In this document: positions 3,001 to 12,000 of the stretch, in pieces
How the letters are laid out: every line of letters starts with the position of its first letter
How positions within the stretch are numbered: position 1 is the first letter of the stretch
Program-made: the position numbers
Assembly: GCA_002482535.1 (NCBI GenBank)
Contig: DLGE01000005.1
Span: forward strand, 74,530-138,529
Length of the DNA: 64,000 bases
Source: Peptococcaceae bacterium UBA7702
GTDB taxonomy: Bacteria; Bacillota; Dehalobacteriia; UBA7702
Direction of reading: 5' to 3'

Positions 3001-6000
3001 GATGCCCTGAAGCGTACTTTTCGTTAGGAGCTTGATGTTGACCAGCTTTTCTTTGGGGTTTCGCGGCGGCCGCTCCATGATATTCCTTTCGGCGGGCTGC
3101 CGTTCCAGGACAATGGAACAGGTGGGATCGATGACCAGTTCCAGCAAAACGACGTGGAAGGGCAGGATCAGCAGGGCCGCTGAGGGAATGCCTAAGAGTG
3201 GGGCGAGGAGCGCGGAAAAGGCGATGGGGATATGGATGGTGAAAATGTAACCGACGGCTTTGCGGATGTTATCGTAGATCCGCCGTCCGTCTTTCACCGT
3301 TTCTACAATGGTGGTGAAATTGTCGTCTAAAAGAATCAGATCGGCGGCTTCCCGGGCAACCTCACTGCCGCGTTTTCCCATGGCGATGCCGATATCGGCG
3401 TATTTCAGCGCCGGAGCGTCGTTGACGCCGTCGCCGGTCATGGCCACAATCTCCCCGTTCTTTTGAAACGCCTTGATGATGCGCATTTTTTGTTCCGGCA
3501 CCACTCGGGAAAAGATGTTGCAGGTTTTGGCTTTTTCCCTCAATGTTTCGTCGCTCATTTTCTGAATCATATCCCCGGTGATGATCTGGCCACAGCTTTG
3601 CATACCGATTTTTTCCGCGATGGCGGCGGCGGTTAAGCCGTGATCTCCGGTGATCATCACCACGCGGATGCCGGCCCTGTTGCAGATGGCAATATCATCG
3701 GCCACTGTTTTGCGGGGTGGGTCCGCCAAACCGATGAGACCCAGAAAGGTCAGGCAGCAATCGGTGATGGCCGGGGGAATGTCGGCTTCCGTTTCAGGCC
3801 GCGCCGCGGCGATGGCAATGACCCGCAGGCCTTCGCCGGACATTTTCCGGATCATTGCTTTTACCGTCGCTTGGTCTTCCTCCCCGATTTCGCAGACGGT
3901 AAGGATGCGTTCAGGGGAGCCTTTGGCGGCAATGATCAGATCGCCGTTTTTGCGCCAGACATGGCCCATCATTTTGAGTTCGTTGGTAAAGGCGTATTCC
4001 GTGACGAGTTCTCCGTTGAAGAGATGTTCTGGGGAAAAGCCCTTTTCCGTACAGAAAGTTAACATAGCCTTTTCCATGGGGTCGTAGTGGTCGGTTTCGC
4101 AGCCGAGTCCCATGGTTTCGATGAGTGGGGAATCTTCTCCGTTGAGAGCCCAGATCTCCTGAACGGCCATTTGGTTCATGGTGATGGTGCCTGTTTTGTC
4201 AACGCAAAGCACGGATACGGTGCCTAAGGTCTCCACCGACGGCAGTTTGCGGACAAGAGACTGTTTTTTTGCCAAGCGCCAGGCGCCCATGGAAAGGAAA
4301 ACAGTGAGGACTACGGGATATTCCTCCGGGATCATGGCCATGGCCAGGGTGATTCCGGCTAAAATGCTTTCTATCAGGCGATCGGCGAAGGCGGAAGCTT
4401 CGCTGTTCCAATAGGTGAACAGACCCACGAGGAGAAAGAGTATCGCGGCAATGACTGCGCAGAGTCTTACGAGGCTGGCCGTTTGTTTTTGTAGCGGCGT
4501 CGCTTCCTGCGGCGCGGCGGCGACATGGGTGCCGATCTTGCCGTATTCCGTCTGATCACCGATTTGATCCACGCGGACCACGGCGGTTCCCTGGCTGATT
4601 AGGGTTCCTGCATAGCAGTAATCCAACCGCCAGGCATCGTCCGCCGGAGAAGCCTGATCCGTACTGATTTTCCATACACCTTCCGCTTCCCCGGTAAGGG
4701 ACGATTCGTCAACGCATAAATCATTGCAGCGGATGATGACGCCGTCGGCAGGAATTTTCACGCCTTCGTGGAGCAGCATCAAATCCCCTGGAACCAGATC
4801 AACGCTGGCGACGGTTTGCTCTTTGCCGCCGCGAATCACGGTGATATGGGGCGCCGATAAATCTTTTAAGGCGTTTAGCGTGCGGTCGGTCTTCCATTCC
4901 TGCATCACGTCAATGGTAATGATGCCGACGACGAAAATCAGCATAATTGCGCCGTCTCGCGGTTCACCCAGGAAAAAGTAAATGATCGCGGCGGCAATGA
5001 GCAGTAAAAACATTGGCTCACCGATGATATGGAGGGCTTTGCGAAAAAAGCCTGCCTTTTTCTTTGGCGTCAATTGGTTTTTACCGTATTTTTCTTGCCG
5101 GGCGCGGACTTCCGCAGAGGTCAACCCTGCCGTTGGTGATTTCTCGTTTGTCATAAAGAACCTCCGTTTTCGCTTTTTAGGCGGCGTTTGATTTCTCTTA
5201 TGGCACTTCCTTTTTCCATTGCTCTGTTCCGTAAGATGAAAGAACACATCCGTGGAACATACGACTGTCCCACAGATGTGTCTAAAATCACCATCTGCTG
5301 CTGCCCCAAGGGCGGCCCGGCTTCATGACCTGAGGGGTCATTGCCTGATCAGTTTGTACTGTTGATTGAACACTTCGTTTTTATTTGATGTGAAGTGCGA
5401 TGCAGTGCGAAAAGATTACTAAGATTATATGCGAAAAGTCATAGAATGTCAATGAAAATCCTTCGACTTTTAGGATTTTTCACTGCTTTTAGCTGGCAGT
5501 TTGTTCCGGCTAACCGGTAAAACGCAACGCGGCCGAAGGCGGCCGCGTTGCACCAGAAGATGGGTATAGGAGCTGTTCTAAATTTCATTCTAAGAGGCTT
5601 TATTCCCCCAGGGTGATGGTTGTAAAGCCGCCGTAAAGTGTTGCCATCTCATCGTAGAGGGGTTCGCCCAACATGAATTCGTAGATTTCATCGGCTTTTG
5701 CCACGGGATCGATGGCGGTGAAAGCGTCGGGATAGAGGACTTTGCCGATATAGTAGAGGTCGGCAAGGGCGGTTTCCAGGTTGCTGTAGTAGTTGGTATA
5801 GGGCAGTTGACCGTATACTTGAGCCTCTTTCACCGCTGTCAGGGATTTATAAAAAGCGGGGTTTTTGGCATAATCCTCCTTGATCACAGAAAGTCCCTGT
5901 TCATCCAGGAAAAGGATATCGGGATCCCAGGTGAGAAGTTGCTCTTTGTCGATGAAGAAGTGGCCTGCGCCGAGTTCATCGGCGACATTTTTCGCGTTGA

Positions 6001-9000: not shown

Positions 9001-12000
9001 ATATCCCCATTTTTTCCCGAACGGCTTCGACAGCGCGAAAACCAATGGCCAGACCGGGACATTGGTGGCCGTGAAAGGCTGCGGCTTTCTCCCACATCTC
9101 TTTATGCATGATATTTTCTCCTTATATTACGGTGACAGGCACCGTTTTGATCAATTATAAAGGAATAAAAAACAAAAGAAAAAGGAGCCATGAGCAAAAG
9201 GATCTCTTTTGCTCATAGCTCCGTGCTAATCGTTCCAAAATAAAGGATTTAGACCGTGTTTTTTACGAACATCTACATGATGTTCTTTACGCTGCTTTTA
9301 TTTTAGTACGGCAACCATTTCATGTCAATACGAATTGTTTGCTAAATTGTCGATTTATTTTGATGCTTACCGTATTGGATTCTTCGCTGCCTTGGCCGCT
9401 TTTCCGTAATGAACGCAGTCTTCATGGTTGCCGCCCTGCTCCAAACGGCAGGCATGGCGCTTTTTGGCAAAAGAGGCGATATCCTCTAAGGCCTTGGCCG
9501 TTTCCGCAAAGAGGGGTTTGTTTAAATCGTAATGGGTATAATAGCCCCGCTTTTCGCCGCTGACCAATCCGGCCTTGCGCATTACTTTAAGATGCTGGGA
9601 CACCGTGGCTTCCGACAGCCCGAGGTTTTTGGCCAAAGCGCCGACGCAGAAGTCATATTCCAAAAGCAGATAGACGATTTTCAGCCTTGTTTTGTCCGCT
9701 AAGGCTTTTAACACTAAAGATAAATCTTCCATATCATTTTACTCCCAACATCTGATCCATATTACCGTAGGTATCGCCGAACCGGTTCATTCTTGCCAGC
9801 CGCGGTCATAAGCATGGAAACAGTCGAGGCAGACCCTTTTGCCGTTCTGCAAGCGCATTTTATGCTCCGGCGCGCCTTCGCCGCAGATTTCACAGGGCAG
9901 TGTATTGAAAATACGGGCCTTTTCCGGTAGCGCAAAGCGGGGTTTGCTAAACGCGAAAAGTTCTTCTGTGGGGGCGTTTAAGATATGCTGTAGCCATTGC
10001 TCTCTGTCGGCGTTTTCCGGCTTTTTGGCTTTCAGATAGATCCTTATATTCTCCCCGTTGGCACGGTTGAAGAAAGAAAAGGCCTGCTTGCCACTGGCTT
10101 TATACAGCAAATTGCCTTTGCCGAAGGTGCAGCTTAAAAGCGCCTGAATGGCGTCAACGCCGCAGGCGTCGTTTTCGGTGACGCAGACGATTTCTTCGTC
10201 GTCGGATTTGCCAAGGGCCAATTTTTCAATGGCCGCTTCTGCGGCGCGAAAGCCAATGGCCAAGCCGGGACATTGGTGGCCATGAAAGGCCACGGCCTTT
10301 TGCCAAAGTTGTTCATTCATCTAAATATCCTCCTAAGAGACTTTTCATTTGAGTTTATCCTACCACTGAAAAAAGCTTGCGTCAAGGCGAATTATTTCGG
10401 CGGTCAGCGAAATATGAGTTGGTGTGCCCGTAAGTTGTCCGGTAATGTTTACAAAAGGGTGTCCCTTATAAAAACGTGCCTCGCCCCATGTTTAAAATGC
10501 GGCGAGGCACAGCCAGATCTGCATGATGTATATCCCTTTATTCTTCCCGCAGTGCTTCTACGGCAGATTCTTTTCTAAGGCGGCGATAAGAGAAATAGGG
10601 GACGGCAAAGCTCAACAGGATTAAGACAGGTAAGGTGACCATGACGGCCCAAACCGGAAATTGATAAGAAAGCCAGGTCATGTTAGAGCAGAAGGATTTT
10701 ATGCCGCTTTGGGCAATCAGAATGCCGAAAATTGAGGAAATTAACCACGCCAGGATACAGTATGCGCCGCTTTCCGCATACAACACCTTCATCAGCTGTC
10801 GCTTTTCCATACCGATGCTTGTCATCATGGCGAATTCTCTTTTTCTGGTGATGATGCCGGTGATGATGCTGTTGATATAATTCATGATGGCGATCAAGCC
10901 GATCATGGCGGCCAGGGCGCCGCCGATGATAACGATCATTTTCCGAAGACCGTCGAATTCTTTGGTGATGATATTTTTTGATTGATAGACAAGGCTGGTA
11001 TCGATGGAATCAGTATACTGTGCCACAGCTTTTTCGACGATGCCTTTGTTTTTAGCCGTTACGTTAACGGCAGCGCCGTAGACGCTACAGTTTTCGGTCT
11101 CACCCTGCAATTGGGCGATATTTTCAACTTCTTCCCGGGGGAGTATACCAAACATACCGTTGAAAGAATAGGATTGCTTGGACAGTGTATAAGGGATTTC
11201 CACAAAAGCCATCACTTCGTAGGTTTTGCCTTTGATTGTGATTTGATCGCCGACTTTATATAACGTACTGCCCAAATTAAGACTGATGTTATCGTCTTCG
11301 TCGTCTTGATCCTTAATGAAAACGATATGGTTCCCCGATTCGTATTTTGCTTTGTCCAATGTGCCGTCGGTAACGGTAAGATTCTTTAAAATATCGTAGT
11401 CGAAGCCGTAGTAGGATATCTCCAATCCTGCTTCCCCAGCCAAAGTTTTTTTGATTCGTTCAATCGTATAAGTATCGTTTTCATCGTGGGCTTTGATCAA
11501 GCCCGCGTCATACGCTTTTTTATAGCGGTTAGCGGCGTCGCCGCTTATGGCAATCGTATCCTCATACAGGAGTAGCTTGGATATTTTTGTTTCATCCTTT
11601 AAACCCAGGCTGTCCAAGTAAGACGCAAAGGTTTGCAGACGGTCCTCAATATCGGTGTCTCCTTCTCCGTAGTAGCCGTTTACTTGCATGGCGGCGGAGG
11701 TCAGGTAGAGATCGGTGTTCCCGAGCATACTGGAGGCGTATTTTTCTACGCTGAAACTGCTGGTAATGGTTGCGATCAGTACGAATAAAAGGATGCTCAG
11801 GCTCATCGAAGTGATGACCAATCCCGATTTTTTCCGGTCTCGTTTCAGGTTGCGCCAAGCCATGACCACATAATTGAGGTTACCCGAAGCGTTTTTCCGC
11901 ACCGTGTTTCGGTGGCTTTGCCGCCGTTGTTTTTTTTGCTTCCGTTTTTCTCCGATGCGTTCAAATTTTACCGCCTCCACCGGCGAGATGGTCGCCGCCA

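Follow-up and report, generated by a model that had tools for sequence, protein, structure and literature searches.

A two-unit FmdE-ArsR-FecCD-type importer module in Peptococcaceae bacterium UBA7702, tentatively linked to nickel uptake, and the hairpin leaders of related operons

The gene cluster described here is located in a stretch of 64,000 nucleotides (nt) of Peptococcaceae bacterium UBA7702 (GenBank assembly GCA_002482535.1, contig DLGE01000005.1, positions 74,530 to 138,529), which was analyzed as a whole and is referred to below as the window. It harbors two genes for FmdE-domain proteins, a gene for an ArsR-type regulator, and the genes of an ATP-binding cassette (ABC) importer. All six open reading frames (ORFs) are encoded on the minus strand in the order fmdE2, arsR, fmdE1, FecCD-type permease, ATPase, and substrate-binding protein, at the positions where the first-pass annotation of this DNA had placed them, and each of the domains then proposed (PF02663 twice, HTH_5, FecCD, ABC_tran, and Peripla_BP_2) was matched. 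The entire arrangement, with approximately 90% protein identity, is also present in the two closest genomes, these being a Peptococcaceae metagenome-assembled genome and a Clostridiales metagenome-assembled genome from an anaerobic reactor (loci L004 and L005, hereafter the sister loci). The cluster is a lineage-specific variant, with two FmdE genes and an arsR gene, of a widespread and conserved FmdE-importer module.

Both FmdE proteins match PF02663 (E values of 2e-36 and 9e-34 and scores of 125.4 and 116.8 bits against a cutoff of 22.9 for FmdE2 and FmdE1, respectively), and each possesses a C-terminal four-cysteine zinc finger of the DksA/TraR type (zf-dskA_traR). The motifs that had been read from the two sequences at the outset, HGHQCPGLAIGFRA and CxxC...CxxC, are indeed present in both copies, which share 70% identity over 175 aa without gaps. 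Residues H13, H15, C17, and C53 are invariant among 21 FmdE sequences and align with His15, His17, Cys19, and Cys55 of the solved family member 2GLZ; Cys46, Cys64, and the four zinc finger cysteines are further invariant positions of the alignment. In 2GLZ, the corresponding site is located at the bottom of a groove approximately 20 Å wide and is occupied by mixed Zn/Ni. The same structure paper, which traces the family name to the operon of the molybdenum formylmethanofuran dehydrogenase, suggested that the zinc finger serves in regulation or in protein interaction (PMC2954224). A Foldseek search of the PDB with the AlphaFold (AF2) model, whose predicted local distance difference test (pLDDT) score is 81, returned only 2GVI, 2GLZ, and 3D00, all dating from 2006 to 2008, and no newer solved relative. 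These three structures share the domain and the His-His-Cys-Cys ligands of the window proteins, while the C-terminal four-cysteine zinc finger is shared with 2GVI and 3D00. In contrast to the solved family, the subfamily of approximately 175 aa considered here occurs in nonmethanogens and is not located beside formylmethanofuran dehydrogenase genes, and the window possesses two copies with an arsR gene between them. The family is acidic (median isoelectric point of 6.0), which argues against direct DNA or RNA binding.

The two copies had been regarded as clear tandem duplicates, a view that the comparisons do not establish, as they are not sister sequences. FmdE1 is 73 to 74% identical to proteins of Spirochaetota and Christensenellaceae, compared with 70% to FmdE2, and in a neighbor-joining tree, which is shallow and poorly resolved, the common ancestor of FmdE1 and FmdE2 spans 50 of the 85 leaves. 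A recent tandem duplication thus receives no support from the tree, FmdE1 being closer to homologs from other phyla, and the poor resolution leaves room for an old duplication.

The FmdE plus zinc finger subfamily comprises 4620 cluster representatives, relatives being present in at least 582 species genomes and retaining approximately 65 to 73% identity across Bacillota, Dehalococcoidia (Chloroflexota), Spirochaetota, and others, an unusual degree of conservation. Linkage was assessed in the best 80 species loci drawn from these genomes, 77 of which were informative, i.e., contained sufficient downstream DNA for importer linkage to be judged; neighboring ORFs of all 80 were clustered and subsequently named by means of Pfam and NCBIfam. 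A FecCD-type set (binding protein, permease, and ATPase) is encoded directly downstream and on the same strand in 61 of the 77 informative loci, and its place is taken by a Nik/Opp-type importer in 4. In a further 4 loci, a FecCD-type set is located nearby (1 divergent within 1.5 kb and 3 elsewhere within 8 kb), and the remaining 8 contain none, although Lar genes, together with an importer of the Nik type, are encoded farther downstream in one of these (L073). Because 61 of the 77 loci carry the importer in this position, the coupling of FmdE to FecCD-type transporters, which had been proposed from the single locus, is a conserved feature of related genomes. The general adjacency of FmdE and transporter genes is not new, having been published in 2010: most PF02663 genes adjoin metal-ion transporter genes, while only 13 of 208 adjoin fmd genes (PMC2954224; Axelrod et al. 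2010).

The permease, ATPase, and binding protein are encoded in one operon and constitute a type II ABC importer of the FecCD/BtuCD class (E values of 2e-85 for FecCD, 3e-32 for ABC_tran, and 2e-20 for Peripla_BP_2), and the binding protein possesses a lipoprotein-type signal that ends in ...FTAC. Its closest solved relative is PDB entry 2ETV (E = 8.8e-88), and it also weakly matches HI_1472 (3PSA, E = 2.6e-9). None of the transporter components reached any NCBIfam equivalog cutoff, those of the iron, heme, and B12 models included (for example, 192 versus 334 for BtuC, 166 versus 406 for FecD, and 33 versus 299 for IsdE). The initial designation of an iron-chelate importer is therefore retained with respect to the FecCD/Peripla_BP_2 family and discarded with respect to iron, which is a family label. 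Two systems that likewise combine a FecCD permease and an ATPase with a cluster A-II binding protein, NiuBDE of Helicobacter pylori and FecDE/CeuE of Helicobacter mustelae, take up nickel in complexed form instead of iron chelates. They differ from the window system in that they are not known to have an FmdE partner and in that their regulator is NikR, as opposed to an ArsR-type repressor or leader RNA, and no close sequence relationship was detected between the window binding protein and solved CeuE/NiuB. NiuBDE is named in PMC7840056.

Further genes recur beside the module in the 80 loci. A class I S-adenosylmethionine (SAM) methyltransferase of approximately 270 aa is encoded in 26, mostly immediately before or after FmdE, and is replaced by a TrmO-like SAM-binding protein in 4. 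LarB, LarC, or LarE, which synthesize the nickel-pincer cofactor, adjoin the module in six loci, NikA-like binding proteins and their permeases are present in seven, and DUF3842 is another recurrent partner in the ORF clustering. The window itself contains no homolog of the methyltransferase, for which no informative family match was obtained, every NCBIfam score being far below its cutoff; an arsenite-type function was considered for this enzyme and dismissed, as it possesses only one conserved cysteine outside the SAM motif. In loci L071, L072, and L078, a repressor of the CsoR/RcnR family with a His-rich N terminus is encoded directly upstream of the module, as the gene 5′ of the methyltransferase gene. 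This repressor displays a C-H-C ligand pattern and represents a third, independent kind of metal-type regulator on an FmdE operon; a C-tract box (TATCCCCCC..AGGGCTT) was also observed in the leaders of L065, L068, and L078.

Immediately downstream of the window importer, a separate unit is headed by a NiCo riboswitch (RF02683; 74.6 bits, E = 1.8e-15) and encodes a P-type ATPase. The latter appears to be of the P2 type, with Cation_ATPase_N and C domains and a PMR1-type calcium ATPase as its best NCBIfam match, below cutoff, and is unlike a classical heavy-metal P1B pump. Orthologs were found near FmdE in both sister loci, in L063, and, by ORF clustering, in L010, where the gene is located 3′ of an arsR gene. 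Cobalamin, molybdenum cofactor (Moco), or other known riboswitches were found 5′ of the FmdE operon neither in the window nor in 19 related loci, and control by cobalamin or Moco was rejected, as neither the gathering threshold nor a cutoff of E ≤ 10 yielded a riboswitch in either intergenic region of the cluster or, likewise, in the 19 loci and two leaders. In view of the Lar and Nik-like partners and of the NiCo riboswitch unit in the same context, the imported metal is more probably nickel, perhaps nickel/cobalt, than iron, as judged from gene neighborhoods. The earlier suggestion that FmdE is a Zn/Fe-binding accessory is accordingly upheld in part: the ligand site corresponds to a Zn/Ni site, whereas the genomic context favors nickel over iron or zinc as the metal.

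The regulator matches HTH_5 (PF01022; E = 2.5e-16) and the NCBIfam metalloregulator model NF033788 (83.7 bits against a cutoff of 55), all specific ArsR equivalog models being below cutoff, and its Cys/His tail, which had been recognized in the first pass, reads HACRLEQGGNHEDCVH. Cys29, Cys95, and Cys106 are invariant in 22 ArsR homologs, in which the tail histidines are also present, and the alignment delineates a predicted ligand set composed of Cys29 and C-x2-[H/E]-x6-7-H-x2-C in the tail. To our knowledge, this set matches none of the described sensor sites (alpha3, alpha3N, alpha5, alpha5C, and alpha4C). NmtR, KmtR, CmtR, and SrnR possess the same winged-helix HTH_5 core, with Cys/His ligands in helix 3 and the C-terminal tail, whereas the window ArsR is linked to an importer module and not to an exporter. 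Five of six homologs with 52 to 62% identity are encoded beside a methyltransferase-(FmdE)-ABC module, on account of which this ArsR subfamily appears to be a dedicated regulator of the module. In four loci (L084, L099, L100, and L101), arsR is divergent from operons encoding the methyltransferase and a Nik-type importer. Locus L098 presents the same order as the window, namely, arsR, a promoter, a hairpin leader with a terminator, and then an operon encoding methyltransferase, FmdE, binding protein, FecCD, and ATPase. The combination of arsR with a second FmdE gene was seen only in the window and the sister loci among the 80 loci, and the claim of a consistent coupling to ArsR thus applies at the level of the subfamily but not to this insertion.

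The cluster is organized as two transcription units, one comprising fmdE2 and arsR and the other comprising a leader, fmdE1, and the importer genes, because a terminator that has its own promoter is located between arsR and fmdE1 (Table 1). This terminator (9222-9184; 17 bp followed by a long T run) is the best intrinsic terminator of the region. The single strong terminator at the 3′ end that had been described is in fact a 12-bp hairpin with a weak T tail (GTTTTAC), which is absent from the terminator-scan list for the region. The fmdE2 and arsR genes are separated by 54 nt, and the pair is kept in both sister loci. So is the perfect dyad upstream of their promoter, the sole zero-mismatch copy in the 64 kb, while the copy overlapping the leader promoter displays one mismatch in L005. 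A further hairpin, located in front of fmdE1, is likewise kept in the sister loci, with a spacer of variable length between it and the terminator; it might influence translation or serve as a binding site.

The leader is also kept in the sister loci. A 136-nt stretch at this site folds at −48.3 kcal/mol (z = −7.05), and a short hairpin at 9228-9216 (UAGC-ACGGA-GCUA), which shares positions with the terminator 5′ arm, is predicted to fold when the 3′ arm is left out. A search of Rfam 15 with the leader region (9110-9366) returned a best score of 27 bits against a threshold of 50, a match considered spurious.

Table 1. Coordinates of the genes and of the predicted regulatory features at the FmdE-importer cluster (positions refer to the window)
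Feature	Positions	Strand	Description
FmdE2	9787-10320	-	FmdE domain and C4 zinc finger, 177 aa
ArsR/SmtB-family regulator	9367-9732	-	121 aa; HTH_5 and NF033788
FmdE1	8582-9109	-	FmdE domain and C4 zinc finger, 175 aa; opens the importer operon
FecCD/BtuC-type permease	7484-8563	-	Starts 18 nt past fmdE1
ABC ATPase	6699-7487	-	4-nt overlap with the permease gene
Substrate-binding lipoprotein, Peripla_BP_2 family	5600-6697	-	1 nt past the ATPase gene
Candidate ArsR operator	10394-10413	.	Perfect dyad ATTTCG-N8-CGAAAT, 8 nt upstream of the fmdE2-arsR -35 element
Promoter-like site of fmdE2-arsR	10357-10385	-	TTGACG-17-TAGGAT, TG-extended; 9/12 matches; kept in the sister loci
Second candidate operator	9317-9336	-	Dyad copy with two mismatches; overlaps the -35 element of the leader promoter
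Leader promoter	9328-9300	-	TTGACA-17-TAAAAT; sigma-70 match 11/12; about 75 nt upstream of the terminator
Predicted leader RNA	9165-9293	-	Hairpin 9285-9267 (loop AUGUA), hairpin 9228-9216, terminator 9222-9184, U run 9183-9165
Hairpin	9129-9145	-	ACGGTG-CCTGT-CACCGT, 6 bp; just 5′ of the fmdE1 ribosome-binding site
Likely end of the importer operon	5551-5524	-	GC-rich hairpin with a short T tail; read from the sequence
Downstream unit	2635-5452	-	Perfect sigma-70 promoter 5452-5424, NiCo riboswitch 5362-5263, P-type ATPase

The leaders of many related operons share a conserved design. Motif counting in 67 upstream regions revealed CAYGAAGG-like words, and the leaders of relatives contain between two and four short hairpins whose stems vary and whose five-base loops are constant (ATGAA, ACGAA, or AAGAA), the last NNGAA hairpin being situated on the 5′ arm of an intrinsic terminator. 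Hairpins with an NNGAA loop and a stem of at least 5 bp number 51 in 65 upstream regions, compared with 6.3 ± 2.6 (maximum of 15) in dinucleotide shuffles and 2 on the opposite strand, and GAA is the commonest loop triplet by a wide margin (51 versus 19 for the next). Because the arms vary while the loop is constant, and because they occur on one strand only, these elements indicate RNA hairpins rather than DNA operators. Two covariance models were constructed, R1 from ten sequences, which found eight more, and R2 after one iteration. The iterated model has 18 matches at E < 2e-6 in 1.29 Mb, all of which are located directly upstream of the operon and on the operon strand. In the resulting alignment, 90% of cells are paired and compensatory changes occur in 10 of 14 pairs; the covariation score of 0.509, against 0.243 in shuffles (reached by 0 of 500), derives from a model-fitted alignment, which favors structure. 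No Rfam match was obtained for the related leaders (19 loci and two leaders).

An exact-pattern scan of metagenomes for another leader subtype retrieved 10 loci, with FmdE as the next gene in 7, and two of the 10 (the same sequence on two contigs) encode a binding protein and DUF3842. In the remaining locus, L091 (11160-12468, minus strand), which originates from the human gut, the hairpin leader precedes genes for an energy-coupling factor (ECF) S component (PF12822) and for a SAM methyltransferase of 204 aa, and FmdE is not encoded next to them. FmdE as an RNA-binding factor is disfavored, given that the family is acidic and that this leader-controlled operon lacks it. The window hairpin, TTAGC-ACGGA-GCTA, differs from its counterpart in L040 at a single loop position and at the outer end of the stem, where one pair is changed, and the window leader is, on this comparison, probably a divergent member of the NNGAA-loop leader family.

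In the use of tandem hairpins with variable stems and conserved loops, the last of which is predicted to compete with an intrinsic terminator, the NNGAA leaders are reminiscent of the two-hairpin antiterminators recognized by ANTAR proteins and of the TwoAYGGAY motif. They differ in possessing five-base loops with GAA at positions 3 to 5, rather than hexaloops with A1 and G4 (ANTAR) or AYGGAY, in having two to four hairpins, and in having no ANTAR gene nearby. A second leader design was observed upstream of the methyltransferase and Nik-type importer operons that are divergent from ArsR orthologs (all on the minus strand): a TTTCTGC...GCAGAAA hairpin followed by a GTTAG-N6-CTAAC hairpin in L084 (5635-6000), L099 (5711-6117), and L101 (5700-6000) and the GTTAG type only in L100 (5642-6000). 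Hairpins of the GTTAG type also occur approximately 200 to 300 nt upstream of fmdE2 in both sister loci (L004:6446-6765 and L005:6440-6759); the window has a different upstream gene at that place.

Taken together, we propose, with a probability of about 0.45, that the cluster encodes a metal-uptake module in two units, likely an importer of a Ni(II) complex, with FmdE1 as the metal acceptor, ArsR and FmdE2 in metal sensing, and importer expression dependent on read-through of the leader. The first unit would provide an ArsR/SmtB-type repressor with a Cys/His sensor motif, together with the second FmdE protein. The repressor probably binds the perfect dyad at its own promoter and may also bind the degenerate dyad over the −35 element of the next promoter, and FmdE2 may relay the metal signal to it. 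Transcription from the leader promoter is predicted to yield a leader of approximately 130 nt ending in the strong intrinsic terminator, such that the fmdE1-permease-ATPase-lipoprotein genes would be transcribed only upon terminator read-through. What is taken up is most likely a complex of nickel(II), possibly of nickel/cobalt, and cytoplasmic FmdE1, whose conserved His2Cys2 site is situated in a wide groove, is the most likely protein to accept or process the metal inside the cell; a cytoplasmic metal acceptor or processor, perhaps acting as a chaperone, is the simplest reading of FmdE. In essence, this retains the core of the first-pass annotation, in which FmdE was coupled to a chelate-type importer and a metal-type regulator and was suggested to handle what is imported, and which is supported by the importer linkage, the ArsR orthologs, and the match of the metal site; its observations were largely correct, and its interpretation was correct only in part. 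For the relatives, we tentatively suggest that FmdE/methyltransferase/importer operons may be governed by a new class of cis-regulatory leader RNA, defined by NNGAA pentaloops and terminator competition, which could be read by a trans-acting factor or ligand reporting nickel or substrate status; the window would then possess a degenerate copy, overlaid by the ArsR and FmdE2 sensor.

Several observations weigh against these proposals. The window leader matches model R2 weakly (16.4 bits, E = 0.1; search of 6 kb with filters off), the score reached after two covariance-model rounds, and in a search with the leader models the L004 ortholog gives E = 8.6. The short antiterminator helix is 85% paired, with covariation no better than in shuffles, and the antitermination logic is, for that reason, something we infer. 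Dyads with up to two mismatches number 5 in the window against 6.3 expected, and the second candidate operator is thus not significant on its own. Repressors of the ArsR/SmtB and CsoR/RcnR families normally leave the DNA when metal is abundant, a behavior that suits exporters, and an importer under such control would therefore require either a co-repressor, for which FmdE2 would be the obvious choice, or induction by its substrate. No CeuE/NiuB chain is present among the PDB matches of the binding protein at E ≤ 0.001. Finally, the methyltransferase partner in 26 of the 80 loci, together with the leader-controlled operon encoding an ECF S component and a methyltransferase, hints at an organic substrate.

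The last point leads to the alternative that the module salvages an organic or metal-organic compound, such as a metallophore or a cofactor precursor, on which FmdE would act as an intracellular enzyme, for instance through removal of a metal or through reduction, with the methyltransferase modifying the compound in most relatives and the repressors sensing the substrate and inducing uptake. The frequent methyltransferase and its occasional TrmO-like substitute fit such a role, as does the interchangeability of three unrelated uptake systems (FecCD-type, Nik/Opp-type, and an ECF S component), which is typical of vitamin or cofactor salvage; the FmdE groove would admit a large ligand (PMC2954224), and regulators of the derepressor type suit induction by substrate. 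We nevertheless consider this alternative doubtful, since the window is devoid of a methyltransferase homolog, the family searches were uninformative as to what the enzyme modifies, and the Lar, Nik, and NiCo context is more simply explained by nickel itself. Less probable again is a chiefly regulatory function, in which FmdE2 would be a metal-binding co-repressor of ArsR when metal is plentiful and FmdE1 would feed back on the importer. The paradox that an importer is placed under ArsR-type control would disappear with such a co-repressor, and the nickel-responsive SrnR/SrnQ pair of Streptomyces griseus provides a precedent for an ArsR-type protein with a co-repressor. The co-transcription of fmdE2 and arsR as a conserved pair is in keeping with this, as are the regulatory proposal for the zinc finger (PMC2954224) and the fusions of FmdE to transcriptional regulators reported in Methanosaeta (PMC11237513). 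Most FmdE loci, however, have no adjacent arsR, most of the ArsR orthologs that were checked accompany a methyltransferase without an adjacent FmdE gene, and the acidic character of the family speaks against direct contact with nucleic acids.

That the importer handles an iron(III)-siderophore or heme, FmdE being an iron- or zinc-binding accessory, appears improbable. Its FecCD and Peripla_BP_2 membership, the deposition of 2ETV as a putative iron(III) binding protein, and the presence of feoA-feoA-feoB upstream of fmdE2 would be compatible with iron. Against this stand the iron-specific NCBIfam models, all of which score far below their cutoffs, and the neighborhoods of the 80 loci, where no iron-related partner recurs but Lar and Nik partners do. 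Moreover, the regulator is of the ArsR rather than the Fur type, and no Fur-box-like sequence was noticed when the promoters were read, no formal scan having been made. Even more remote is an importer of molybdate or tungstate, of the MolBC-A kind, with FmdE serving molybdenum or tungsten enzymes. The origin of the FmdE name and the weak match of the binding protein to HI_1472, which we take to be the molybdate/tungstate-binding protein MolA, point in that direction; yet fmd, fwd, and molybdopterin genes are absent within 20 kb around the cluster and do not recur among the neighbors in the 80 loci, a Moco riboswitch was detected neither in the window nor in the 19 related loci, and fmd genes adjoin few members of the family (the 13 of 208 mentioned above). 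We favor the two-unit nickel-uptake module, although the methyltransferase and ECF partners keep an organic compound in play as the substrate.

In the literature searched, FmdE in connection with ABC transporters, nickel, riboswitches, or Dehalococcoides was covered only by the structure paper of 2010 and by a survey of archaeal fusions, in agreement with the earlier remark that FmdE is poorly characterized outside methanogens; for the solved relatives of the binding protein, no usable publications were retrieved. What is new here is the linkage of ArsR orthologs to the module, the recurrent set of partners, and the conserved NNGAA leader in many operons. FmdE has had structures since 2006 to 2008 and is still without a function, and the partner set (importer, SAM methyltransferase, Lar proteins, ArsR subfamily, and leader RNA) makes a vague transporter adjacency accessible to experiment. 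Since hydrogenases, CO dehydrogenase, and nickel-pincer enzymes of these anaerobes are limited by the supply of nickel, a new route for nickel and a new RNA control element would be useful to know. Should the proposed leader-RNA control be correct, FmdE, an orphan since the 1990s, would be the cytoplasmic core of a widespread and unrecognized uptake pathway of anaerobes.

Further neighboring genes were recorded in the window and in some of the related loci. The region upstream of the cluster (10538-18896), as converted from the gene table of locus L001, encodes a BceAB-like ABC pair (an ATPase and an FtsX permease of 883 aa), a two-component system, and feoA-feoA-feoB accompanied by a small FeoB-associated protein, the feo genes being located approximately 5.6 kb upstream of fmdE2. 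As a recurrent cluster in loci L057, L059, L081, and L083, NifX-like (Nitro_FeMo-Co) proteins, 4Fe-4S MinD/ParA-like ATPases, an Mrp-like ATPase, and DUF134 are encoded beside FmdE. The ArsR/methyltransferase/Nik-type cluster of L101 is accompanied (6831-12360, minus strand) by genes for two nitrogenase-like Oxidored_nitro proteins, a NifH-like ATPase, an ABC ATPase, and two FecCD permeases.

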